Assembly: GCA_038212075.1 (NCBI GenBank) | Contig: JBBQUV010000003.1 | Coordinates: forward strand, 20,036 to 84,035 | Reading direction: 5' to 3' | Length of the DNA: 64,000 nt | Source of the DNA: Minisyncoccia bacterium | GTDB lineage: Bacteria; Patescibacteriota; Minisyncoccia; Phycocordibacterales; Phycocordibacteraceae | The notes under the pieces: generated by a model | Databases searched by the model: none | What the model saw: only the letters and a program-made list of their open reading frames with translations | What the model was told of the DNA's origin: nothing | Program-made: the position numbers and the translations under genes | In this document: positions 1,326-57,943 of the stretch, piece by piece | Numbering within the stretch: the stretch's first letter is position 1 | Layout: every line of letters starts with the position of its first letter

Positions 1326-1396
1326 ACTAAGACGTGAATACCACCCGAAAAAACCACTCGAAACGAAGCGGTTAGTTCGCGCCAATTTGGTGCGAC

Positions 1397-1424
1397 GAAA
1401 AAACCGCCTCACGGCGGTTTTTTC
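1397..1424 (+). terminator. Terminator-like hairpin (accgcc-tcac-ggcggt + TTTTTT) between the promoter and the 23S gene
   Basis: Perfect 6-bp GC stem followed by a T6 tract. Confidence 0.55.
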
Positions 1425-1785
1425 GTGGAGAGAATCACAGGTTCGTTGACAATCGAATACGCATAGGTAAATCAAAGCTCCGATGTAACAGTCGGAGTGT
1501 AGAAAGTGCAAATTCATCTAGCGATGTTAGAAAGTTAATTGTGGTGTTCAGATCTCCGCACAGGAGACGTGAAGGGTGTATGGTGGATGCCTAGGCTTGT
1601 GACAGCGATGAAGGACGCTACTAATCAGCGATAGCTCCGGGGAGGCGATTTGTAGCCTTTGATCCGGAGGTCTCCGAATGGGGAAACCCGTCTGCGTATG
1701 CGGACATCTTCCGAGTAATGTCGGAAGGAGCGAACCTCGGGAAGTGAAACATCTCAGTACCGAGAGGAAAAGAAAACAAGAGCGA

Positions 1786-1840
1786 GCCGTGTTCTGTCTG
1801 CGCATTATGTTTGTGCAGATAGAACACGTCTCTCGCGATT
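1786..1840 (+). other. About 45-nt hairpin expansion segment in 23S domain I relative to E. coli
   Basis: Extra cgtgttctgtctgcgca...tgcagatagaacacg hairpin between GAAAAGAAA and GATTCCCC. Confidence 0.5.
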
Positions 1841-2103
1841 CCCCTAATAGCGGCGAGCGAAAAGGGAAAAGCCCAAACCTCTGCTTTCGGGCAGGGGGGT
1901 TGTAAGGCAGGAGCGCACAATTTATTGTGAAAGAGTTACCAATTGTCTTTATAGTGGAAGCTGCTGGGAAGCAGCGCCCCAGAGGGTAATGGCCCCGTAC
2001 ACGAAATAAATGACAACTCTTGCTCCTGTTCTTGAGTAGCTCGAGACACGAATAGCTCGAGTGAATCTGCCGGAACTAACCGGTAAGGCTAAATATGTCA
2101 CAG

Positions 2104-2143
<40 letters not shown>

Positions 2144-3595
2144 CACCCCGAGAGGGGAGTGAAATAGTACTGAAACCATACACTTACAAAGGGTGGGAGC
2201 GGGTCGAGAGCAATCTTGGCACCGTGACCGCGTGCCTATTGAAGAATGAGCCGGCGAGTGTGTATATGTTGCGTAGCTAAATCCTTTGACGGATGCAGCT
2301 GTAGGGAAACCGAGTGTGAATAGCGCGTAAGTAGCATATATACGACACGAAGCCAGATGAGCTTGCCATGAGCAGGGTGAAGTTTCTCGAAAGAGGAATG
2401 GAGGCCCGAACCCGTAGGCTGTGCAACACCTTGGGATGACTTGTGGCAAGGAGTGAAAAGCTAATCGAATCTGGTAATAGCTTGTTCTCTCCGAAACAGC
2501 TTTTGGGTTGGCGTCGCGTGTTCCCTCTGGGGGTAGAGCACTGGAAGGGTTCAACAGGGAGAAATCTCGTGAACCCTATCAACCTCCGAATACCAGAGAT
2601 CAAGAGCGCGGCAGTTAGAACGTGGGGGCGAAGCTCCACGGATCGAAAGGGGAAGAGCCCTGATCGCCAGTTAAGGCCCCTAAATCGACGCTCAGTATAT
2701 CCACAAGGAAGTGGGAATCCTTTGACAATGAGGATGTTGGCTTAGAAGCAGCCACCATTTAAAGAAAGCGTAACAGCTCACTCATCGAGGGTTCCTGCGC
2801 CGAAGATGATCGGGATTAAGCGTCGTGCCGAAACTGCGGGTGTACATCTTTTTCGAAAGATGTACGCGGTAGGAGAGCGTTCCATTCGCGCTGAAGCTAA
2901 AGGGGTGACCCATAGTGGAGCGTATGGAAGTGAGGATGCCGGTACAAGTAACCACAATGCGGGTGAGAACCCCGCACATCAAAAGACCAAGGATTCCTCG
3001 GCCATGGTAATCATCCGAGGGTTAGTCGGGCCTAAGAGGATGGCGAAAGCCGCACTCGATGGACACAAGGTTAATATTCCTTGACCGCTACACATGCGAA
3101 GAAGTGACGGACTGCTGTAATTATTGCCCATTATTGGATTTGGGTTGGTGCCGTGAGGAGGTGTACTAGGAAAATCCGGTACGCACTACTCCAAGCGGAG
3201 CCGCAATTTCCTCCTACGGGGGGAGAAAGAATAGTGAGCGCGGTTCCAAGAAAACCTTCTACGCTTCAGTGTGCTAGCGCCCGTACCGTAAACCGACACA
3301 GGTGGTCAAGTCGAGTAGACTACGATGAACGAGTTAGAGGTCCTCAAGGAACTCGGCAAAAAAGCGGCCGTAAGTTAGCGATAAGGCCTGGCTCTCGCAA
3401 GAGAGCCCGCAGTGAATGTGTCCCTGCCAACTGTTTACCAAAAACACAGCTCCCTGCGAACTCGTAAGAGGATGTATAGGGGGTGACGCCTGACCAATGC
3501 CGGAAGGTCAACCACGGGTGGTACCCTACTTCGGTAGTGTGCTGGACTGTGTAAGCCCCGGTGAATGTCGGCGATAACTATAATCGTCCTAAGGT

Positions 3596-3801
3596 CCTGC
3601 GTGTGAGCAATCGCACGCAGGACGGATTGGGACGATTATAGGAGACCGTAAACAGTGTTGAGAAACGTGCGTCATTTAAAGCTACCTCGTTATACGGTAA
3701 CGTATAACAGATCCGCGGCTCACAAGAGAGGCCATACGCCGCGCGTCCTCGCTGTAAAAAGATGAGGATGAAGAAATGGTCCTACGTTAAAGGAATAGTA
3801 G
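3596..3801 (+). mobile_element. 206-nt insertion at the 23S site equivalent to E. coli 1917 (CCUAAGGU^AGCGAAAUUCC). Possible small or degenerate group I intron
   Basis: Exon sequence is contiguous if 3596-3801 is removed. The 5' exon ends in T and the insert ends in G. Too short for a canonical group I core, and R/S elements are not clear. Confidence 0.45.
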
Positions 3802-4130
3802 AGCGCAATTCCTTGTCGGGTAAATTCCGACGTGCACGAATGGCGTAATGAGTGGGGAACTGTCTCGAGGACTCGCTCGGTGAAAATGCATTTCCGGTGA
3901 AGATGCCGGATACCTGTAGTTAGACGAAAAGACCCCAGGAGCTTTACTGCAGCTTCGTATTGGGGCTGCGTGCTTTATGCGTAGCATAGTGGGGAGAGGT
4001 TGAGATATCGGTTTCGGCTGATGTGGACTCGAAATATGAAATACCCATCTTAAAGTGTGCAGTTTCTAACCGATCGGACGAACCCGATCGGGACCGTGCG
4101 TGGCAGGCAGTTTTGGTGGGGCGCTATCCT

Positions 4131-4653
4131 TCGGCCAATGAATACTGGATTCGTTGGTCGAAGCCATGGCGCCCCGCGAAGCCTCAATAAGCTTCAAAAC
4201 AAATAAATAAGGGGGCGCGGCAGCAATGCTGCGGGCAAGTTGGGAATATGCTGGAAACACCGGTGGATGGTATGCTACTTGTATTAGCAAGTGACAATGT
4301 ATACCTGCGGTCAATCAGCAGGGAAGTTAATTAAACATGGAACAAATACCACAGGAGCCCAAAAAAGAAGGTAAAGAAGAACTTATGCACAGCCTCGATA
4401 TCTCTCTAGAGCTTATTGAGGACCATATGTCGGGAGCTCGAATGTGCGCAGCCAGTACTTCTAGCGAAGTTGCAAGCCATGAGGAAGAGTATATGGACAA
4501 GGCTTGGAAAGAAATTCGAGAGGCCAGAAAACTTCTTGAACAACTAAAAGACGGTTCCTAATGAATTAACCCCCTCAGAGACTACAAACCAACCATCCTG
4601 AAAAGGATGAATGTATAGTCCGCACTGCATGGCGACATGCAGATAACACAAGG
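4131..4653 (+). mobile_element. Group I intron in 23S rRNA, next to the P-loop (about E. coli 2262), 523 nt, containing a small ORF
   Basis: Exons align across GGGGCGCTATCCT | CCTAAAAAGTAACGGAGGAG. R-like tcagagactaca and S-like gaatgtatagtcc elements (P7) present. P/Q-like gctgcgggcaag / cctgcggtcaatcagcag. 5' exon ends in U and intron ends in G. Confidence 0.75.
4337..4561 (+). CDS. Intron-internal ORF (74 aa, acidic, no recognisable homing-endonuclease motif)
   Basis: ORF lies in a peripheral loop of the group I intron, between the Q and R elements. No LAGLIDADG/GIY-YIG/HNH motifs. Confidence 0.25.
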   Translation: MEQIPQEPKKEGKEELMHSLDISLELIEDHMSGARMCAASTSSEVASHEEEYMDKAWKEIREARKLLEQLKDGS

Positions 4654-4987
4654 CCTAAAAAGTAACGGAGGAGTCTATTAAGGTTCTCTAGTCGCGAATG
4701 GAAACCGTGACGATAGTGTAATGGCATAAGAGAGCTTAACTGCGAGGCGTACATGCCAAGCAGATGCGAAAGCAGAGCATAGTGAACCGATGGTCCGCCT
4801 TAGATGCGGCCAGAGATTAACGGATATAAGTTACCCTGGGGATAACAGGCTAGTTCCGCCCAAGCGTCCTTAGCGACGGCGGAGTTCGGCACCTCGATGT
4901 CGGCTCAACATAGCGCGGGGCTGGAGAAGGTCCCAAGCGTTTGGCTGTTCGCCAATTAAAATGTTACGTGAGCTGGGTTCAGACCGT

Positions 4988-5351
4988 TCAGTTGCTGAAA
5001 AGTATCGGCACTTGGACCGTCTGAACCCCTTCGAAGAAGTTATCAAGTCAAAAAGGTTTTTTCGTCTAAGCAAAAGAATAGAACCAACAAATATCACGGC
5101 GGTCTTGCATAGGAATATGCAAGAATCAAATCAACTGATATCGGTGAAATCCTGTAAAGGACAACACCGAGGGAAGAGGGCTTTAGCGACTCGCCAAACC
5201 AGAGAAGAAAGGTTTGGCTCGCTTGCATAAGTGTTCGCAAATCTTGCCTGAAGGCAAAATTTGCTCCCTTACCCGTAGAGACTGAACGTTGAACAGCGAG
5301 AACCGCTGAAGTTACAGTCCGATCCCCGCAGTAATGTGGGAAAACATGGTG
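4988..5351 (+). mobile_element. Group I intron in 23S rRNA at the site equivalent to E. coli about 2593 (AGAACGU^CGUGAGACAG), 364 nt
   Basis: Exons align across GGGTTCAGACCGT | CGTGAGACAGGTTGGTC. R-like gtagagactgaa and S-like agttacagtcc. 5' exon ends in U and intron ends in G. Confidence 0.7.
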
Positions 5352-5772
5352 CGTGAGACAGGTTGGTCTCCTATCTACTACAGGCGTTGATTATTGAGGA
5401 GGGTCGTCCCTAGTACGAGAGGACCGGGATGAACTGACCTCTGGTCTACCAGTTGTCCTGCCAAGGGCATTGCTGGGTAGCTATGTCGGGTTCCGATAAC
5501 CGCTGAAAGCATATAAGCGGGAAACGGGCTCCAAGATCAGTAATCGTTATGAGACACCTTGCAGATTACAAGGTTGATAGGCTTTAAGTGAAAGTGCCGT
5601 AAGGTATTGAGCTGAGAAGTACTAATATGTCCAGTTCTCTTGTGCGGAACTCTGGGTGCCACAAAGCGCTATGAGTTTGCACTTGCTACGATTTTGAATT
5701 ACTTATGCGTATTCGGTTGTTAACGATACCAAGACATTGGTCCGTTGGAATCGAATTGTTTATTGAAAGTTT

Positions 5773-5887
5773 AGTTCTGGTGGTTTGGCGGCGGGGTCAT
5801 ACCCGTTCTCATTCCGAACACGGCAGTCAAGCCCGCTAGCGTCGATGGTACTTCTAACGAGGGAGAGTAGATAGCCGCCAGAACTAA
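5773..5887 (+). rRNA. rrf: 5S rRNA
   Basis: ...CCGAACACGGCAGTCAAGCCCGCTAGCGTCGATGGTA...GAGAGTAG... with helix I pairing agttctgg / ccagaact. Confidence 0.85.
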
Positions 5888-9061: not shown

Positions 9062-10426
9062 ATGACTATCGGTAGCCGCAGAGCCTCGGCGTTTTTGTTT
9101 ATGGGAGACATTGCCGTCTTCGCTTTTTCGCTGTGGCTCACCCTTTTCCTTAGGTATAGGCACCTACCATCACGGGATCTGCTCCTGTCTCACGCTGGCC
9201 CGTTCGCATTTCTGTTCATTGTATGGCTCCTCGTATTTTTTATGGGTGGGTTATATGAAAAACGGGCAATCTTTTTCAAACGTGACCTTTCCGGACGGAT
9301 TATTCGTACGCAAATTGTAAATATTATTCTTGCAGCGCTATTTTTCTTTTTCGTGCCCGCGCTTGGTATCACGCCAAAAACAAATCTTTTTATCTATCTC
9401 GTTGTGTCGCTTGTCCTAATTTTGTTTTGGCGCCTTGTAGTGTTTCCAAAATTTGCCGAGCGACGCACTCGTATTGAAGCCATCATTATTGGCGTGGGGA
9501 AGGAAGAGGAAGAACTCAAAAACGAACTCAACAGCAATATGCGTTATGCAATACGGTGTCGCGCGTCCGTTGACCCACGTGCGACAACGCCGCAATCGTT
9601 CAGCGCTTTTTTGGATGAACACAAAGGACAGGAGGTGAATCTACTTATTGTTGACACACGCGATTCTTCGGTCGCGGCGCTCATTCCAGAAATGTACCGA
9701 CGCTCGTTTGAAGAGAGCTCCTATCACATTGTTGATTTACTCGCCCTCTACGAAGAAGTGTTTGATCGTATTCCGCTCACACGCGTCAACTACGAATGGT
9801 TCTTTCGATACGCAACACGCCGTGCATCGGGGTTTTATCTTTTTGTAAAACGTATCATCGACATTGTTGGCGGGATCCTGATGGCCGTCATTACAGTCAT
9901 TGCGACTCCTTTTGTATGGCTCGCACTTCGTATTGAAGGCAAGGGCCCACTTTTTATTGCCCAAGAACGTCTTGGGGAACGGGTGACCACCATGCACGCA
10001 TACAAGTTTCGTACGATGGAACAAAATGACACCGGAACGTGGAGCGGGGAAGGCACCAATCGCATTACGCGTGTTGGCGCATTTTTGCGCCGCACCTCGC
10101 TCGATGAATTTCCGCAGTGTATCAACGTGCTTCGGGGGGAGCTTTCGCTTATAGGGCCACGCAACGACATTGTGGGTCTCGGAAAACGACTTGAAGAGGC
10201 ACTTCCGTACTACCGCGTTCGCTATATTGTGAAGCCGGGTATCACGGGCTGGGCGCAGGTAAATCAGCAATATGAACAAGGACATATTAGTCCGCAATCT
10301 ATCGAGGAAACAAAGATGCGTCTCGCGTATGATTTTTATTATTTGAAGCACCGTTCGTTTATGCTTGATGTAATGATTGCGCTTAAAACCATCAAGCGCA
10401 TGTTTTTCCGTCTTGGCGCCGTATAG
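9062..10426 (+). CDS. Polyprenyl-phosphate sugar phosphotransferase (WbaP/WcaJ-type initiating transferase)
   Basis: N-terminal TM helices plus the C-terminal Bac_transf domain (...LSLIGPRN...KPGITGWAQV...). Confidence 0.85.
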   Translation: MTIGSRRASAFLFMGDIAVFAFSLWLTLFLRYRHLPSRDLLLSHAGPFAFLFIVWLLVFFMGGLYEKRAIFFKRDLSGRIIRTQIVNIILAALFFFFVPALGITPKTNLFIYLVVSLVLILFWRLVVFPKFAERRTRIEAIIIGVGKEEEELKNELNSNMRYAIRCRASVDPRATTPQSFSAFLDEHKGQEVNLLIVDTRDSSVAALIPEMYRRSFEESSYHIVDLLALYEEVFDRIPLTRVNYEWFFRYATRRASGFYLFVKRIIDIVGGILMAVITVIATPFVWLALRIEGKGPLFIAQERLGERVTTMHAYKFRTMEQNDTGTWSGEGTNRITRVGAFLRRTSLDEFPQCINVLRGELSLIGPRNDIVGLGKRLEEALPYYRVRYIVKPGITGWAQVNQQYEQGHISPQSIEETKMRLAYDFYYLKHRSFMLDVMIALKTIKRMFFRLGAV

Positions 10427-10428
10427 CT

Positions 10429-11481
10429 ATGAATACACACACTTTACTTATTACAGGAGCGGCGGGATACGTTGGCGCAATGCTTGTGGATCAATATTCT
10501 AAGCGTAGCGACGTAGAAAAAATTATCGGGCTTGATAAAGATTCTGCGCCAGCGCTTATTAAAGACAATCCAAAGCTGGTGTATATACAGGCGAACACTT
10601 CTGACGTCGGGTGGGAAGAAAAGGTGAAGGCATACAATCCGGATATTGTTATCCATACGGCGTGGCAAATACGGTGTTTTTACGGCAACGCGCCGCTTGC
10701 GTGGAAGTGGAATGTGGACGGCACAAAACGAGTGTTTGCGTTTGCGTTCAATACCACGAGTGTGAAGCGGCTCATACATTTTTCAACCGCTTCTATTTAC
10801 GGCGCGTACAAAACAAACACGCTTGACCACTACTTCAAAGAATCGGAACCGATGCGCGAGAGCGAATATTTGTACGGCGTAGAAAAACGACAATCGGAAG
10901 ATGATGTGAACGCGCTTCGCACGACGAGGAAAGACGTGCAGGTATTTATGGTGCGTCCGGCGGCCATCACTGGCCCACGTGGGCGCGCCATGCATTACCG
11001 TTTTGGTTTACAGTCGGCGCTTTCAGGTACGCTGAAAGGCTCATTCGTTTACAGCATTGTGCGAGCGCTTGTTTCGTTTGTACCGTCCACGCCGGGATGG
11101 TGCCGTCAGTTTGTGCATGAAGACGACGTGGCGGATATCATCGGGAAACTCGCGTTTGATTCTATAGATTCTTCATATGAAGTATTCAATCTCACCCCAC
11201 CCGGACTTCCGGTACTTCCAAAAGATATGGCAAAAGCGGTGGGGAAACGCACGGTGAATATTCCGGTGCCGTTTATTCGTCTCGCATACTTTTTGTTTTG
11301 GCACCTTACCCGTGGAAAAATTCCAACTGCGCCCGGTAGTTGGCGATTCTACTCGTACCCTGTGGTAATGGACGGAACAAAAGTAACTACCATGCTTGGG
11401 CACGTATACAAAATGGAATCAAAAGATGCGTTTGTAAAAAACGAAGGAAGATATGCCGTTCCACCGACAAAGCGAAAATGA
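10429..11481 (+). CDS. NAD-dependent nucleotide-sugar epimerase/dehydratase (SDR family)
   Basis: N-terminal ITGAAGYVG Rossmann motif, 350 aa. Confidence 0.75.
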   Translation: MNTHTLLITGAAGYVGAMLVDQYSKRSDVEKIIGLDKDSAPALIKDNPKLVYIQANTSDVGWEEKVKAYNPDIVIHTAWQIRCFYGNAPLAWKWNVDGTKRVFAFAFNTTSVKRLIHFSTASIYGAYKTNTLDHYFKESEPMRESEYLYGVEKRQSEDDVNALRTTRKDVQVFMVRPAAITGPRGRAMHYRFGLQSALSGTLKGSFVYSIVRALVSFVPSTPGWCRQFVHEDDVADIIGKLAFDSIDSSYEVFNLTPPGLPVLPKDMAKAVGKRTVNIPVPFIRLAYFLFWHLTRGKIPTAPGSWRFYSYPVVMDGTKVTTMLGHVYKMESKDAFVKNEGRYAVPPTKRK

Positions 11482-11535
11482 ACACCGCTCCGGGCCGCTT
11501 GGCCAAGTCTTAGTATTCATTTTCGCCTTGTCGGC

Positions 11536-11541
11536 TACACT
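11536..11541 (+). promoter_or_regulatory. -10 hexamer TACACT, 7 nt before the folD ATG (leaderless configuration)
   Basis: tacact acacgt ATG. Confidence 0.35.
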
Positions 11542-11547
11542 ACACGT

Positions 11548-18183: not shown

Positions 18184-18200
18184 TTTTGTTCCGCCTATTC
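18184..18200 (+). promoter_or_regulatory. 5' strand of the 17-bp pre-16S processing stem
   Basis: ttttgttccgcctattc is the perfect complement of 19807-19823. Confidence 0.6.
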
Positions 18201-18206
18201 TTAATT

Positions 18207-19651
<1,445 letters not shown>

Positions 19652-19806
19652 TATCCGAATGGAATCGGTTCTCCCGAAAGGAGGACCAAGTCGAACGTGT
19701 CGCAAGACACGAGGGAGATAGCACTACGTCCCCAAACGTGTGCTCGGTAGCCCCATACGTCAGGGGCGCTGGAGTCGGAGCGCTCAATTGACGCTCTGAA
19801 TACGGC
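19652..19806 (+). other. 155-nt 3' trailer/extension of the 16S transcript enclosed by the processing stem
   Basis: Lies between GGATCA and the 3' stem strand. Contains AGGAGG but no CCTCC. Confidence 0.5.
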
Positions 19807-20651: not shown

Positions 20652-20670
20652 GTGTGTTGTGTGTTGTGTG
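20652..20670 (+). repeat. Short (GTGTT/GTG)n simple repeat spacer
   Basis: gtgtgttgtgtgttgtgtg. Confidence 0.6.
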
Positions 20671-20742
20671 CACGCTTAGCTCAGCTGGTAGAGCACTCGA
20701 CTGATACTCGAGCGGTCCTAGGTTCGACTCCTAGAGCGTGCA
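20670..20742 (+). tRNA. tRNA-Ile (anticodon GAT), 73 nt, no encoded CCA
   Basis: Hand-folded cloverleaf: acceptor gcacgct/agcgtgc, D arm gctc-agctggta-gagc, anticodon arm ctcga-ctGATac-tcgag, T arm ctagg-ttcgact-cctag. Confidence 0.85.
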
Positions 20743-20765
20743 CACAACATGGAACAGTAGCTTCG

Positions 20766-20812
20766 CTCCACTGATACTCGAGCGGTCGTAGGTTCGACTC
20801 CTACCGCACGCA
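20766..20812 (+). pseudogene. 3' half of a second tRNA-like gene (anticodon arm with GAT, variable loop, T arm, acceptor 3' strand + discriminator A)
   Basis: ctcca-ctgatac-tcgag-cggtc-gtagg-ttcgact-cctac-cgcacgc-a. 20770-20804 is near-identical to 20700-20734 of the intact tRNA-Ile. Confidence 0.45.
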
Positions 20813-20885
20813 CTAGAGAGAGGCCGCCTAAAGGCGGTTTTCTCATTTATACCCATACGTATCCTATCCAGACTGTTTTGCGAGC

Positions 20886-25784: not shown

Positions 25785-26468
25785 ATGAATGGCACCCTTT
25801 CAATCGTTGCGACACCCATAGGGAATCTCGGAGATATCACGCTTCGGGCATTGGACACACTGAAGCGTGCGGATGTTATCGCGTGCGAGGACACGCGTGT
25901 GACGGCAAAGCTATTGCAGAGATACGATATTCAAAAACCGTTGGTTATTTACCACGCTCGTTCAGGACGACTGAATACCACGCGTGTGCTCTCAATGCTT
26001 GGGGAAGGAAAGCATGTTGCACTCGTGACTGACGCCGGTACGCCAGGAATTTCTGATCCCGGTGCAGAACTTGTTGCGGAAGTCCGTGCACGGCTCGGCG
26101 ACGATGTTCGTATTGAAACTATTCCGGGCGCGGCCGCAGTAACCGCCGCGCTTTCTATTGCGGGAGTGCCCTGTGCGGACTTTACCTTTCTCGGATTTTT
26201 ACCACACAAAAAAGGACGCGAGACTCTTTTCAAAGAAATCGCAGAAGGCAAGCGTACCTATGTTTTTTATGAATCTCCGCACCGCGCAACGAAAGCGCTT
26301 GATTCGCTCGCGAAGATTTTGCCCGAAAAGCGCATGGTTGCCGTTTGCCGTGAACTCACCAAAATTCACGAGTCGGTGGTGCGGGGAAGCGCCAAAGAGG
26401 TGGTCGCTTACTTTGCTAAAAACAAAGATCAGGTTCGCGGGGAGTTTGTGATTATTGTCGGAACGTAA
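25785..26468 (+). CDS. rsmI: 16S rRNA (cytidine1402-2'-O)-methyltransferase
   Basis: Tetrapyrrole-methylase fold, LSIVATPIGNLGDITLRALDTLKRADVIACEDTR. Confidence 0.85.
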   Translation: MNGTLSIVATPIGNLGDITLRALDTLKRADVIACEDTRVTAKLLQRYDIQKPLVIYHARSGRLNTTRVLSMLGEGKHVALVTDAGTPGISDPGAELVAEVRARLGDDVRIETIPGAAAVTAALSIAGVPCADFTFLGFLPHKKGRETLFKEIAEGKRTYVFYESPHRATKALDSLAKILPEKRMVAVCRELTKIHESVVRGSAKEVVAYFAKNKDQVRGEFVIIVGT

Positions 26469-26483: not shown

Positions 26484-26553
26484 ATGGAGTGAGGCACGTA
26501 CCCGCCGGAGACTAAACTAGGTCTCTCTCCGGCGGGTACGTGCCGAGCGGAAA
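26484..26553 (+). repeat. Structured hairpin repeat, copy 2: 19-bp stem (ggcacgtacccgccggaga / tctccggcgggtacgtgcc) with loop CTAAACTAGGTCTC and conserved flanks GGAGTGAG / GAGCG
   Basis: Read directly. Loop and flanks match copy 1 at 219-291 while the stem interior differs with full compensation. Confidence 0.6.
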
Positions 26554-26588
26554 GTTATCCACTTTTCGTTGTTTTGCAGATGCTCTTG

Positions 26589-26594
26589 TATACT
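26589..26594 (+). promoter_or_regulatory. -10 hexamer TATACT, 7 nt before the ATG at 26601 (leaderless configuration)
   Basis: tatact gcgggt ATG. Confidence 0.4.
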
Positions 26595-26600
26595 GCGGGT

Positions 26601-26825
26601 ATGTCAAAAGAAGGAACACTCATTACGCTCGGTGTCCTTGTCGCTATCTCTCCTTTCCTTGGACTCCCGCTTTCCTGGCTTTCGTTCTTTCTTCCCGTTA
26701 TGGGCACCATCACGCTTTTCATCGGATACCTGATTCGCCGTGATCATGTCGCATCTCACACGCGCTTGCAGACAGTGCAAGACACTCCTTCATTTGATAC
26801 TTCTGCACCGTCGCCAATTGCATAG
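26601..26825 (+). CDS. Small membrane protein (2 TM)
   Basis: MSKEGTLITLGVLVAISPFLGLPLSWLSFFLPVMGTITLFIGYLI... Confidence 0.5.
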   Translation: MSKEGTLITLGVLVAISPFLGLPLSWLSFFLPVMGTITLFIGYLIRRDHVASHTRLQTVQDTPSFDTSAPSPIA

Positions 26826-29040: not shown

Positions 29041-29206
29041 AACTTTTTTGCTGAAAGGTGAGTAGTAATACGTGTACTGATACACCGTAACCATACGTGG
29101 CATATGCAAAGAAAGCACTATGCCCGCACGCCGAAGCCATAGTGCCGGGGCGTGCGGGCGCTATGCTTTTCAGGCGCCGAGTATACTGGTACTGTCCACC
29201 TATTCC

Positions 29207-30658
29207 ATGGCTCAAAAACTCATTCTTGTTACCGGAGGTGCCGGGTTTATCGGCTCGCATCTGTGTAAACGACTCCACGAAAATGGCTATACGGTCATTT
29301 CTTTAGACAATCACTTTGCGGGTAGCAAAGAGAACGAAACACTGCCCATTGAATACAGGGAAGGACACACGAAAGACATTGCAGTACTGGTGCCTGAAAA
29401 ACCAGATATTATTTTTCATCTGGGAGAATATTCTCGCGTTGAACAAAGTTTGCTTGAGCCGGAAGTGGTACATGATTTGAATGTTGTCGGTACGGCCGCG
29501 GTTTTGGATTTCTGGAAAAAGAATGGCGGAAAATTGGTGTACGCAGGTTCTTCTACAAAATTCGGCGATGGCGGGCTGGCGCGTAGCGCCACGCCGTACG
29601 CGGCGTCAAAAGCGGATAATACGGAGAAAGTAAAAAAGATGGGCGATGAGACTGGTCTTCCCTATGCGATTACCTATTTTTACAACGTATTTGGAGAAGG
29701 GGAGCGTGCGGGCGCGTACGGCACCGTGATTGAAATATTTAAGCAAATGTATGTGCGCGGTACGCCGATAACAGTGACTGCACCAGGTACCCAAACGCGT
29801 AACTTTACGCACGTGGATGACATTGTGAACGGATTGATGCTTGTCGCAGAAAAGGGGCAGGGTGATGAGTACGGACTAGGGAATGAAAAGTTTTTCTCAA
29901 TGCTTGATGTTGCGCGTCTATTTGGAACAGACATTCTTATGCTTCCGGAACGTGCGGGCAACCGCATGGGCTCAGGGCTTGATACCACAAAAGCACGAGT
30001 GCTCGGCTGGGAAGCCGAGCACCGTCTTGAAGATTACTTACAAGAATTTTTGAACGAACATAAGCGCGGCGCAGTGCTCGACGCACGGGTGCTTGTATTC
30101 TCTACCACATTTCATCCTATTTCAGGTCCTGCGGAAGAAGCCCTTGTGGCACTCATGCGGGCAATGCCGAACGTGCAGTTTGATATTGTGACCACCCACT
30201 TCACACGCGATGCAAAAACTATTGCATCGCCGGCAAAAAATGCCACAGTGTACCGCGTTGGAAACGGCACGTCGTTTGATAAATACCTGCTCCCCTTTCT
30301 TGGATTTTTTATGGCACGCACACTTGCAAAGAAACACACGTATCTGTTTGCGTGGTCTATCTTTGCAAGTTATGCCGCGCTTGCGGCAATCCTATTAAAA
30401 CGCACAACGGGTATGCCGCTTCTTATTACATTGGCCGATCAAGATATTTCACAGGTGAAGTCGTGGAAGCGTTGGTTTCTTCACACAGCGCTGTCAGATG
30501 CTGACCAAGTGTACGGTATGGAGTCAAAAGACGAACGGAAAGCGGCACGGCTGGTAGGCAAACAAACACTCCGTCACTCCATGGGTGACGGTGACGCCTT
30601 CGCCAACCAAATACGCTTTGCCTACGCCTCTATTTTGAGGCACACTCCTGGTATATGA
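29207..30658 (+). CDS. Fusion protein: N-terminal NAD-dependent sugar epimerase/dehydratase (SDR) plus C-terminal GT4-type glycosyltransferase N-domain-like region
   Basis: ATG at 29207. LILVTGGAGFIGSHL Rossmann motif, then a separate roughly 180-aa domain resembling GT-B N-terminal halves. Confidence 0.6.
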   Translation: MAQKLILVTGGAGFIGSHLCKRLHENGYTVISLDNHFAGSKENETLPIEYREGHTKDIAVLVPEKPDIIFHLGEYSRVEQSLLEPEVVHDLNVVGTAAVLDFWKKNGGKLVYAGSSTKFGDGGLARSATPYAASKADNTEKVKKMGDETGLPYAITYFYNVFGEGERAGAYGTVIEIFKQMYVRGTPITVTAPGTQTRNFTHVDDIVNGLMLVAEKGQGDEYGLGNEKFFSMLDVARLFGTDILMLPERAGNRMGSGLDTTKARVLGWEAEHRLEDYLQEFLNEHKRGAVLDARVLVFSTTFHPISGPAEEALVALMRAMPNVQFDIVTTHFTRDAKTIASPAKNATVYRVGNGTSFDKYLLPFLGFFMARTLAKKHTYLFAWSIFASYAALAAILLKRTTGMPLLITLADQDISQVKSWKRWFLHTALSDADQVYGMESKDERKAARLVGKQTLRHSMGDGDAFANQIRFAYASILRHTPGI

Positions 30659-32963: not shown

Positions 32964-34081
32964 ACATTCTTTTTGTTTCAAATGATCCAAATATATTTGT
33001 CGCCGATAGCGCGGTGAGAAAACGTTTGCGCGCATACGCGGCATACTTCACTGCGGTGCATGTGGTATCACCGGCAGGACAAGGTGTGGTTTCTGAGACG
33101 GATGGAAAACTTGTCCTGCATCCGGTAACGGTTGGAAAATTATTTCGCGTTCCAGTGCTTGCAAAAACAGCACGCACGATTGTGCATGAATATTCCATCG
33201 CCGTTGTTTCTGCACAAGATCCGTTTGAACAAGGTATTGCGGCATTGTATGCCACCCTTCGTACACCAGCTCGTTTGCATATTCAAATTCATACCGATTT
33301 CCTATCATCTTTTTTCAAACGCGCTTCCTTTAAAAATAACGTGCGCGTATATACTGCCGCGCTCGTGTTGTGGTTTGCCGATGGAGTCCGTGTGGTGTCT
33401 GAACGTATACAACAATCTATACGCAGTCACTACGGTACAAGCGTTCCGGAGATGCGCGTCATTCCTATCGCTGTTTCTTCTACACTTCCCGAAGTGGTAT
33501 TACTTCCACCGAATTCTTTTTTGTTTTCATTTATGACGGTTTCGCGGCTGGAATCTGAGAAACATATTGAAGATATTCTTTCTGCATTTGTTCTTGTTCT
33601 GCGCGAATATCCAAACGCCGGTCTTTTCATTGTGGGCGAGGGACAAGAACATGCGCCGCTTATGCGCCGCGTAAAAGAATTGGCTATTGAAAAAAATGTA
33701 GTTTTTCTTGGGCATCGTGCAGACGCGCGAGGGCTGATGTGTAGTGCACAGGCCTATGTGAATGCGAGCGCATACGAAGGGTACGGACTCTCTCTTATTG
33801 AGGCGGCTCTTGCAGGTGTTCCTATCGTTACTACCGACGTTGGGATTGTTGGCGAAGTACTGTTACCCGGACGAGACGTCCTTCTTTTCCCCGTTAGTGA
33901 CAGTGAAGCGGCGGCGCGGGAAATGATTCGACTTATTGAACAAAAAAGCCTGTGCGCCATGCTTTCCCAAAATGCCCAAAAGGCGGCACAGACACATATA
34001 GAGGGTTTTCCTGATCAACCCAAGCTCGTAGCCGCAGACATTGCGGGTGTGGCCGGAACAGGTACCATAACCGCACCATGA
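32960..34081 (+). CDS. Glycosyltransferase family 4
   Basis: C-terminal SAYEGYGLSLIEAALAGVPIVTTDVG GT4 motif. Confidence 0.8.
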   Translation: MNILFVSNDPNIFVADSAVRKRLRAYAAYFTAVHVVSPAGQGVVSETDGKLVLHPVTVGKLFRVPVLAKTARTIVHEYSIAVVSAQDPFEQGIAALYATLRTPARLHIQIHTDFLSSFFKRASFKNNVRVYTAALVLWFADGVRVVSERIQQSIRSHYGTSVPEMRVIPIAVSSTLPEVVLLPPNSFLFSFMTVSRLESEKHIEDILSAFVLVLREYPNAGLFIVGEGQEHAPLMRRVKELAIEKNVVFLGHRADARGLMCSAQAYVNASAYEGYGLSLIEAALAGVPIVTTDVGIVGEVLLPGRDVLLFPVSDSEAAAREMIRLIEQKSLCAMLSQNAQKAAQTHIEGFPDQPKLVAADIAGVAGTGTITAP

Positions 34082-56726: not shown

Positions 56727-57734
56727 ATGATTATTCGCGAATCTGTCCCTCTTTCAGAACTCACCACCTTTAAAATAGGAGGAGTCGCGCGGTACGTGAT
56801 TTCCTGCATGAATGATGATGATGTTCGAGAAGCGCTTCATTTTGCAAAAGACCACATGCTACCGTGGTATGTGTTTGGTGGCGGAAGTAATATTCTTGCG
56901 AGCGATACTGGGTATGAAGGCGTTGTGATTATGCTTACTGCTTCTTCGTGTTTGTTTACGGAGGAAGGAAGTGGGGTGCTGTGTGTCGCTGATGCGGGCA
57001 TGTCGTGGGACACGTTTGTGCAAACGGTTACAGAAAAAGAGTTGTGGGGTGTTGAAAATCTTGCCGGCATTCCGGGAACGGTGGGTGCCGCACCAGTGCA
57101 AAATATTGGTGCGTACGGAATCGAGCTTCAAGAAACGCTTGCGTGGGTTGACGCTATTACACCGGCAACGGGCGCATTGGTGCGCATACAAAATGCAGAG
57201 TGTGGATTTGGCTATCGCGACAGTCGCTTTAAGCACGAAACATTAATCATTGTGCGTGTCGCGCTCACTCTTTCAAAAACACCAGCACCAAAGCTCTCCT
57301 ACAAAGATCTTGCGGCACAGGTCGCCGTAGGCGTGCCCCTTTCTACTCCGGTAGAAATCGCAGAAACAGTACGGAGTATTCGCTCCAAAAAATTTCCTGA
57401 CCTTGCCGTGCTCGGCACTGCGGGCTCGTTCTTTAAAAACCCGCTTATTTCCAAAGAAGCGTTCGCTGTACTCAAAGAACAGTATCCGGATATGCCCGCA
57501 TTTCCAAGCGGCGATAAAATAAAAGTGCCCTTGGCGTGGATTCTTGACCACGTTCTTTCCTTGAAAGGGTTCGGACACGGATCGGTACGGCTTTTTGAAG
57601 CTCAACCGCTTGTCATTGTTGCCGAAGCTGGTGCGTGCGCACGCGACGTTGAAGTAGTTGCGCAAGAAGTTGCAACACAAGTATTCACCGCAACTGGCAT
57701 TACGCTTGAGTGGGAAGTGCGCAAGTTTGGATAA
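56727..57734 (+). CDS. murB: UDP-N-acetylenolpyruvoylglucosamine reductase
   Basis: FAD-binding ...TTFKIGG...VFGGGSN... motifs, 335 aa. Confidence 0.85.
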   Translation: MIIRESVPLSELTTFKIGGVARYVISCMNDDDVREALHFAKDHMLPWYVFGGGSNILASDTGYEGVVIMLTASSCLFTEEGSGVLCVADAGMSWDTFVQTVTEKELWGVENLAGIPGTVGAAPVQNIGAYGIELQETLAWVDAITPATGALVRIQNAECGFGYRDSRFKHETLIIVRVALTLSKTPAPKLSYKDLAAQVAVGVPLSTPVEIAETVRSIRSKKFPDLAVLGTAGSFFKNPLISKEAFAVLKEQYPDMPAFPSGDKIKVPLAWILDHVLSLKGFGHGSVRLFEAQPLVIVAEAGACARDVEVVAQEVATQVFTATGITLEWEVRKFG

Positions 57735-57789
57735 TTTTTTATAAAAAAGTTTTTTAAAAATAATTTTTCGCGATACTACATTTGATGAG

Positions 57790-57798
57790 TTATCCACA
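57790..57798 (+). promoter_or_regulatory. Perfect DnaA-box consensus TTATCCACA next to an AT-rich palindromic tract
   Basis: Exact 9-mer. Single occurrence here. Confidence 0.25.
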
Positions 57799-57943
57799 TC
57801 TCGCGTTTTTTTCTCACAAAAAATCTTTACACGCGCAATAATGAATAAGTGCAAGAACAATCGTGCGAAATTTTCTCAAAAAAAGTTCGCGCGAACATGG
57901 TCGACTCTATCAGTCATAGCAAACGTAATTACGTACCATCTCT

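Follow-up and report, generated by a model that had tools for sequence, protein, structure and literature searches.

Behind rsmI, the gene of a 16S rRNA C1402 2'-O-methyltransferase, a 64,000-nt stretch of a Minisyncoccia bacterium genome (assembly GCA_038212075.1, contig JBBQUV010000003.1; the whole stretch is called the window below) contains a long hairpin, which raises the question of whether this structure acts on its neighbouring genes, e.g. as a terminator, or is a repeat that has settled between them. A preliminary description of the hairpin (26484-26553), made from the sequence alone, regarded it as copy 2 of a repeat family, located between a terminator position and a promoter and followed by a near-DnaA box. 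Based on our observations, we suggest that copy 2 is probably a lineage-specific insertion, ~70 nt long, of a non-autonomous palindromic repeat element, which would be a short-loop derivative of a superfamily of hairpins found across Patescibacteria.

Two short-loop hairpins and their insertion sites

An inverted-repeat search delimited copy 2 as a perfect hairpin (26493-26544, + strand) with a 19-bp stem, 100% complementary arms and a 14-nt loop. The 19-nt 5' arm (26493-26511) is composed of a conserved GGCACGT and 12 variable nt, and the 3' arm occupies 26526-26544. The loop between them, CTAAACTAGGTCTC (26512-26525), is conserved in copy 1 (see below) and resembles the 5' part of the loop yUAAGACUUGG of a large hairpin family described in the next section. 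The stem stands on a 5' foot, TGGAGTGA (26485-26492), and a 3' foot, GAGCGGAAAG (26545-26554), in which the GU of the former pairs with the GC of the latter and GA is opposed to GA, i.e. a tandem G.A is formed at the stem base. The leading TGGA could also pair with the TCCA of a box located downstream. RNA folding of both strands, as proposed in the preliminary description, showed copy 2 to be very stable on either of them (-45.8 kcal/mol, z = -6.3 for the + strand; -48.1 kcal/mol, z = -7.5 for the - strand), and none of 200 shuffles matched this fold. The alternative register GAGAC/GTCTC, which the same description had noticed in the TCTCTC tract, is indeed present in copy 2; it is unused in the minimum-free-energy fold and is missing from copy 1. 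A second small hairpin can form at 26545-26569 by pairing of the 3' foot (AGCGGAAAGU) with the downstream ACUUUUCGUU; it holds a TCCAC box in its loop, is followed by GUUUU, and is absent as a conserved feature from copy 1.

Copy 1 (220-291, + strand) has the same construction: a 5' foot TGGAGCGAA, two 19-nt arms (229-247 and 263-281) with 100% complementarity, a 15-nt loop (248-262) and a 3' foot GAGCGTAGAG. Both copies have TGGAGYGA(A) as their 5' flank, GGCAYGT / ACRTGCC as the bottom 7 bp of the stem, ACTAAACT(CT/A)GGTCTCT as the loop, and a 3' side ACRTGCCGAGCG.A.AG with the flank GAGCG.A.AG. The arms are unrelated over their inner 12 bp (4/12 identical), yet the pairing there is fully compensated. 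The pattern GGCAYGT-N(10-40)-ACRTGCCGAGCG matched exactly two sites in the window, i.e. the two copies, where 0.00 matches were expected. The claim that the hairpin belongs to a repeat family, which the preliminary description would have given up had a motif search revealed no other copy, is thereby confirmed. That description also proposed a comparison of loops at orthologous loci; no orthologous copy exists, and constraint is seen instead among the paralogues and in the wider family.

A covariance model built from copies 1 and 2 only (R1) scores them at 99.7 and 96.3 bits, and its scan of the window did not find a third full short-loop copy. No short-loop copy was found at the loci of relatives either. 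Public collections, to which the source genome itself does not belong, were scanned with exact motifs: the flank pattern gave 28 matches and 0 hairpins in IMG/VR, the loop with the stem base gave 0 matches in IMG/VR, the loop with the 3' flank gave 0 matches in JGI metagenomes, and 62 matches in GTDB (185,579 genomes) were all due to chance, with a longest outer pairing of <=10 bp. The possibility that the stems act as guides was considered as well; elsewhere in the window the variable arms have only near-matches at chance level, and a targeting role is unsupported.

The gene order murC-NUDIX-rsmI-small protein-VirD4-like is preserved in relatives, which allows a direct comparison of the spacer between rsmI and the small gene. 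In the window this spacer is 132 nt long and contains copy 2. It is hairpin-free in L029 (51 nt; RsmI 82% identical), L032/L033 (50 nt; 84%) and L217-219 (12 nt; 81%). In L096 (RsmI 85% identical) the contig ends in the loop of a hairpin of the type found at 11464-11534 of the window, and L220-223 (81% identical) carry a third long hairpin with the loop TGCGGCGGCAGGCTTCTC, the spacer being 103-127 nt long in L220, L221 and L223. The window sequence located 3' of copy 2 (GTTATCC...TACTGCGG.ATG) aligns with the empty site of L032, whose spacer, i.e. TTCTGA followed immediately by GTTATCCCCTTG...GATACTGCGGATATG, aligns with the window sequence following copy 2. At the site of copy 1, L226 is also empty, with a stop codon directly followed by GAGGG-GTATCCACA, and L224 has an unrelated imperfect palindrome of ~110 nt (9765-9880); a box and a promoter are conserved there in the window, L224 and L226. 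As the orthologous spacers are either hairpin-free or differently hairpinned, copies 1 and 2 are insertions, and the alignments indicate that they are lineage-specific ones, placed in spacers that repeatedly acquire hairpins.

Both spacers appear in relatives as hot spots for hairpin DNA and contain other long hairpins or palindromes with different loops. The hairpin of L220 (6511-6620), L221, L222 and L223 (1091-1165) reads GGCGAAGC...GCTTCGCC around its loop. In L096, a Logan contig, the sequence breaks off inside the hairpin loop (5317-5373), 66 nt after rsmI. The palindromes of the large family probably break assemblies, and such breaks may be the cause of the label 'partial' borne by many database proteins of valyl-tRNA synthetase (ValRS).

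The large hairpin family

The window member of the large family, I1 (11453-11545, - strand), has 22-bp arms (11464-11485 and 11513-11534) and a 27-nt loop, CUAAGACUUGGCCAAGCGGCCCGGAGCG, which reads CGCTCCGGGCCGCTTGGCCAAGTCTTA on the + strand. Its left arm overlaps the final codons of an epimerase gene, and the -10 of a folD-like gene directly adjoins its right arm. The preliminary description had drawn no link between copy 2 and this hairpin or its metagenomic family. Among the matches listed, the loop 20-mer CCGGGCCGCTYGGCCAAGTC occurs in >120 metagenome contigs, and ~115 of the 126 occurrences form the apex of a long hairpin whose arms pair with each other and differ per locus. The conserved loop is GACUUGGCCRAGCGGCCCGGAG, and the family plan runs from a foot ...rGCGA through a stem of 12-45 bp to the apical part yUAA GACUU-GGCC-RAGC-GGCC-CGGAGCG, and back through the second strand of the stem to a foot GAGCGr... 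A second architecture has only 4 bp between the loop and the GA foot, with the variable stem outside the latter. The stems covary, with double compensatory changes in 22 of 29 pairs of an 18-sequence alignment, and so do the 4 bp of the mini-hairpin (GGCC/GGCC to GGGC/GCCC). We found no description of such a hairpin family in the literature, searched by keyword and by sequence string; it has no counterpart in Rfam 15 and is apparently undescribed.

The short-loop copies and this family recognize each other in covariance searches. R1 matches I1-type elements in sense orientation (36 bits, E 4e-8 in L135; 29 in L155; 26 in L186; 23 for I1 of the window). A second model, R2, built from 18 I1-type (long-loop) elements only, scores I1 at 80 bits (E 1e-17), and its next-best matches in the window are copy 2 (24.8 bits, E 7e-4) and copy 1 (20.9 bits, E 7e-3), with a rough calibration of these values. 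Both matches are full length and on the + strand; in reverse orientation they reach ~15 bits, and other hairpins of the window score <=17.6 bits. The two types have in common the rGYGA...GAGCG foot with its G-C clamp and tandem G.A, found in copies 1 and 2, a loop start CUAA(G)ACU..GG, and a long variable stem that is kept paired, as it also is in both copies. Given these reciprocal matches, we treat the short-loop type, with moderate confidence, as a putative derived sister type of the large Patescibacteria superfamily. Two hairpins inside the 23S gene (1772-1846 and 3573-3646) also gave weak matches to both models (13-18 bits).

The hairpin of one strand is favoured. When mismatches are read on the strand of the loop, G.T outnumbers A.C (33 vs 10, p 6e-4) and purine-purine outnumbers pyrimidine-pyrimidine (42 vs 8, p 1e-6) in 55 non-redundant elements. 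This bias is alike in elements co-oriented with the host gene (18 vs 4) and anti-oriented to it (15 vs 2); therefore, one particular strand's hairpin is maintained regardless of the direction of host transcription. Such strand specificity fits either a single-stranded-DNA hairpin or an RNA with its own transcription. The sense strand is + for copies 1 and 2 and - for the hairpin at 11464-11534; for copy 2 it is G-rich and the one on which the flanking genes run.

Housekeeping genes, i.e. valS, pth, rplC/rplD, dnaJ/dnaK, ftsW and others, are the neighbours of family copies, and no recurrent neighbour such as a transposase, reverse transcriptase or nuclease was seen near 119 large-family elements. 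Intergenic copies are located in 15 convergent vs 4 divergent contexts, and in tandem contexts of both orientations (20 and 10). About one third of the members are embedded in open reading frames (ORFs) according to a crude gene call, and several of these ORFs were confirmed as real proteins. In ValRS the element lies between the catalytic and the anticodon-binding domains (L127, L203, L184, L172, L192 and L202; L123 has it at the same site with the loop reversed), in IF2 between domain II and the IF-2 domain (L099), in a PrmC-like methyltransferase before the SAM-binding domain (L121, L126, L146, L180 and L103), and in a Wzy_C membrane protein within the domain region (L124 and, in the opposite orientation, L125). 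The coding copies sit in linkers between Pfam domains. All of them are in frame and stop-free, and an intron or splicing was therefore judged unlikely. The loop occurs in at least five of the six reading frames (the peptides being KTWPSGPE, RLGRAARS, LRAARPSL, APGRSAKS and others), therefore conservation acts on the nucleic acid rather than on the peptide.

Among related ValRS proteins there are decayed loops (TWASVPE, TWPLEPE) and element-free versions. Element-bearing ValRS is ~10 residues longer than the element-free form (KLWN-to-LHPF distance of 111 vs 101-103), whereas the hairpin spans ~26 codons, and the base of the 3' arm in the ValRS copies encodes residues that align with native ValRS. 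The mismatch in length can be explained in two ways: (i) insertion was followed by deletion or (ii) template switching rebuilt the arms out of host sequence. In the intergenic copies of the window, the entire hairpin is extra DNA. The opposite orientation of the loop at the same orthologous site, seen in L123 vs L127 (ValRS) and in L125 vs L124 (Wzy-like), suggests that at these two coding sites the loop was inverted in place between the inverted arms.

Weighing the explanations

If copy 2 is an inserted palindromic repeat of this superfamily, its design would comprise a constant foot (a G-Y/G-C clamp and tandem G.A), a freely varying paired stem and a constant apical loop. Such hairpins would enter permissive places of compact genomes, i.e. 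gaps between a stop codon and a promoter, and linkers between protein domains, where they would lie in frame. Mobility and function are what we infer for the element: the hairpin of one strand (+ in this case) would be the unit that is recognized and maintained, as single-stranded DNA or as RNA, a trans-acting factor would read the foot and the loop, and the complementarity of the arms would be kept via compensatory change or template switching within the hairpin. The effect at the rsmI site is most likely neutral; at most, the element would act passively, as a very stable 3' hairpin of the rsmI transcripts that separates them from the downstream leaderless promoter. It does not serve rsmI or the small membrane-protein gene as a conserved regulatory signal and is neither a terminator nor a DnaA site; copy 2 itself represents an insertion polymorphism.

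Several points weigh against this explanation. The short-loop type is known from two copies only, both in the window, and the scores that link it to the large family are moderate, with E ~1e-3 in one direction. Copies 1 and 2 are devoid of the GGCC-RAGC-GGCC mini-hairpin and of CGGAGCG, the most conserved feature of the large family, and were therefore filed as a derivative or sister type instead of typical members. Neither a transposase nor another mobilizing protein was found, and the window copies have no clear target-site duplication; a possible 4-5 nt duplication at the insertion sites (TGGAG / TAGAG, GAAAG) is weak. Furthermore, the loop and foot are 100% conserved between copies with wholly diverged stems, which argues for a real functional constraint that would not follow by itself from a purely selfish or neutral interpretation. 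The same is true of the large family, whose loop and foot are conserved across hosts with ValRS proteins 55-80% identical.

The layout of the spacer would also suit a cis element that serves the host on the rsmI transcript, i.e. a terminator without a U-tract, a stabilizer of the mRNA 3' end or an insulator against read-through into the downstream leaderless promoter. Such an element would be similar to REP stabilizers or to terminator-like repeats of the SPRITE type. Copy 2 is a very stable hairpin, separated by 16 nt from the stop codon before it and by 35 nt from the -10 after it, copy 1 is laid out alike, three hairpin types occupy the same spacer among relatives, as if a hairpin were useful there, and intergenic family members are enriched at convergent gene ends. 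Nevertheless, we consider such a role rather unlikely. The stem is followed by GAGCGGAAAG and not by a U-tract, its 14-nt loop exceeds the 3-8 nt expected of an intrinsic terminator, and the terminator scan was empty, whereas a canonical-like terminator exists elsewhere in the window (1395-1426). Several relatives have no hairpin at all in the rsmI spacer, members of the family reside inside ORFs and in both gene orientations, and a barrier needs no conserved loop or foot. The preliminary description was right in placing the element between the rsmI stop codon and a promoter; the terminator position that it assumed there is not conserved, as relatives with the same gene order have a hairpin-free spacer of ~50 nt.

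A functional structured RNA, protein-binding or catalytic, would account for other features: its recognition surfaces would be the tandem G.A foot and the loop, and the copies would make up a multi-copy family of noncoding RNA genes. Stem covariation, the tolerance of G.U and G.A on one strand only, the extreme conservation of the loop across divergent hosts and the presence of RNA-like motifs (the tandem G.A foot and a UAA...GAG internal loop below the 4-bp mini-hairpin) are all in line with it. On the other hand, no promoter or terminator is associated with the elements, the large-family members embedded in ORFs include those in real proteins, the sense strand is retained also where the host gene runs antisense to it, presence and absence vary between close relatives, and the short-loop copies are without the most conserved module of the loop, all of which makes this explanation improbable.

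The preliminary description had also drawn attention to a near-DnaA box, and a DNA-level site for replication, DnaA titration or recombination might be tied to it. The box, TTATCCACT (26555-26563, + strand), is present, with an 8/9 match to the DnaA-box consensus; it adjoins copy 2, just as GTGTCCACA (292-300) abuts copy 1, and one-mismatch boxes, of which it is one, are about twice as frequent in the window as expected (22 vs 11). However, these boxes are scattered, with no cluster at the element, the large family has no such box, and GC skew is positive across the whole window without a change of sign. An oriC, which would call for a cluster of TTATCCACA, an AT-rich unwinding element and a skew switch, was rejected on the absence of a cluster at the element and of a switch. 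The TCCAC box is kept at orthologous sites without the element (GTTATCCCC in L032; GTATCCACA in L224 and L226), and because of this it is taken as ancestral sequence lying upstream of the promoter and outside the insertion; it is not a component of the hairpin element. A role of the hairpin tied to DnaA is therefore very improbable, and the box does not mark an origin.

A more far-reaching form of the repeat-element explanation, which we regard as doubtful, is that the copies are the minimal form of an undescribed class of strand-specific hairpins pervading the genomes of Patescibacteria, in which a conserved trans factor would read the ~27-nt loop and the G.A foot, as single-stranded DNA or as RNA, and the arms, rather than being inherited, would be rebuilt or extended out of local sequence by template switching. 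Such an element could thereby settle in frame inside essential genes and flip its orientation in place. If true, this would be a novel palindrome, mobile or self-maintaining, or else a novel structured RNA in multiple copies, and more than a further repeat of the REP or MITE kind.

Known classes were examined as well. Rfam 15, run over the whole window at the gathering threshold and over the two hairpin regions at E<=10, yielded no match to a known RNA family except generic miRNA-precursor hairpins (13-23 bits vs 49-100 required), and neither ARAGORN nor the Rfam tRNA model placed a tRNA or tmRNA at the hairpin sites. The sigma-70 promoter scan called none at the copy 2 element. By inspection, the foot is not a kink-turn, the G.A pairs abutting the 2-bp clamp directly without a 3-nt bulge. 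Membership of the REP/REPIN-RAYT group was rejected on the lack of a GTAG foot and of conserved arms, and only 7 bp of the arms are common to both copies when these are viewed as MITEs, i.e. miniature transposable elements with inverted repeats. An assembly artefact was rejected, as the identical architecture recurs across many independent assemblies.

Rickettsia palindromic elements (RPE) are ~100-150 bp long, not known outside Rickettsia and conserved over their full length, each encoding a conserved peptide. They have been presented as 'protein-coding palindromes', found in spacers and in frame within genes (PMC10969869). The large family is similar to RPE in that it consists of short palindromes of a reduced genome, with copies in spacers as well as in frame in unrelated housekeeping genes, at positions tolerated by the protein, and without a transposase of their own. 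However, the pattern of conservation is inverted, as only the loop and foot are conserved here and the arms differ from copy to copy; moreover, the use of at least five of six reading frames leaves no single conserved peptide, the hosts are Patescibacteria, and the two known short-loop copies have no known coding insertion. The likeness to RPE is one of analogy in behaviour, not of membership.

REP sequences and REPINs, which are mobilized by RAYT, are 20-40 nt long and have a GTAG foot, arms conserved within a genome and a variable spacer. Like them and the MITEs derived from IS200/IS605, the hairpins studied here are extragenic structures often located after gene ends, with the hairpin of one strand being the one that matters, and they would be non-autonomous and acted upon in trans; the pattern of conservation is the opposite, since in REP the arms are conserved and the spacer varies, whereas here the arms vary. 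No RAYT or Y1 transposase turned up, although no systematic search for them was made. Correction of quasi-palindromes by intramolecular template switching is a mutational mechanism and not a family of elements; as a candidate mechanism, it would explain complementary arms whose sequence drifts and the gain of only ~10 residues in ValRS. Terminator-like repeats, SPRITE, are also on record (PMC10969869). Copy 2 shares with these and with intrinsic terminators a GC-rich stem-loop directly after a stop codon, but has a perfect 19-bp stem, a 14-nt loop and no U-tract, and its family also occurs inside ORFs.

Patescibacteria (Candidate Phyla Radiation) account for much of bacterial diversity, and their genomes of ~1 Mb are regarded as stripped of junk. 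A hairpin family whose loop is invariant, whose stems vary but stay paired and whose structure is strand-specific would be a new marker of genome dynamics in this group, as would its copies inside ValRS, IF2 and other core genes; it would form a natural counterpart, in a lineage with reduced genomes unrelated to Rickettsia, to the protein-coding palindromes of the latter. In practice, the family probably causes assembly breaks and split gene calls. If a specific protein recognizes the loop and foot, the family would provide access to a DNA or RNA transaction, as yet unknown, in organisms so far beyond manipulation.

Neighbouring genes and further features of the window

The rsmI gene (25785-26468, + strand) is followed, beyond copy 2, by a small membrane-protein gene of 74 codons (26601-26825, + strand). 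Its promoter, predicted in the preliminary description, was recognized outside the element (26589-26603, + strand) as a -10-like TATACT (26589-26594), 6 nt and the ATG (26601). The same spacing of -10, 6 nt and ATG is kept in the orthologous loci L029, L032, L220 and L223, from which a leaderless start is a reasonable inference and probably applies to this gene. Copy 1 lies between a stop codon (173) and the box at 292-300, which is followed by TTGCTACACT and by an MscS-like gene (398-1081) with its promoter. Both copies are thus located upstream of promoters of membrane-protein genes, a co-occurrence that the preliminary description had proposed to examine. The best homologues of RsmI and of the MscS-like protein are named Minisyncoccia, Paceibacterota or Parcubacteria.

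A GT(T)(A/G)TCCAC box, located 26-30 nt upstream of a TAYACT -10, is conserved across species before these two membrane-protein genes (292-300 and 26555-26563 in the window, 9893-9901 in L224, 6923-6931 in L226, and ~7290 in L032). It is kept with or without an adjoining hairpin insertion and may be a transcription-factor or promoter element. The pattern TCCAC-N(18-34)-TAYACT occurs at two sites in the window, those beside copies 1 and 2, which fits either a target preference or these being the only dispensable DNA of the spacers.

In an AT-rich spacer at 57720-57800, a perfect TTATCCACA (57790) is accompanied by a box with one mismatch (57726); the GC skew, positive throughout the window, gives no hint of an origin there. 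The sole canonical-looking bidirectional terminator among the listed intergenic inverted repeats is at 1395-1426 (ACGAAAAAACCGCC/GGCGGTTTTTTCGT), with T-runs. Further long intergenic inverted repeats, with unrelated loops, are located at 29112-29169, 30322-30370, 33589-33651 and 1125-1169.

The 23S rRNA gene (1560-5645) is 4086 nt long vs 2925 nt of the model, which amounts to insertions of ~1.1 kb, and the gene contains no ORF >145 aa. ARAGORN called two overlapping tRNA-Ile(GAT) genes (20670-20743 and 20736-20813), of which Rfam backs only the first. The 16S gene (18200-19659) is unlinked and lies 12.3 kb downstream of the 5S gene (5776-5883).

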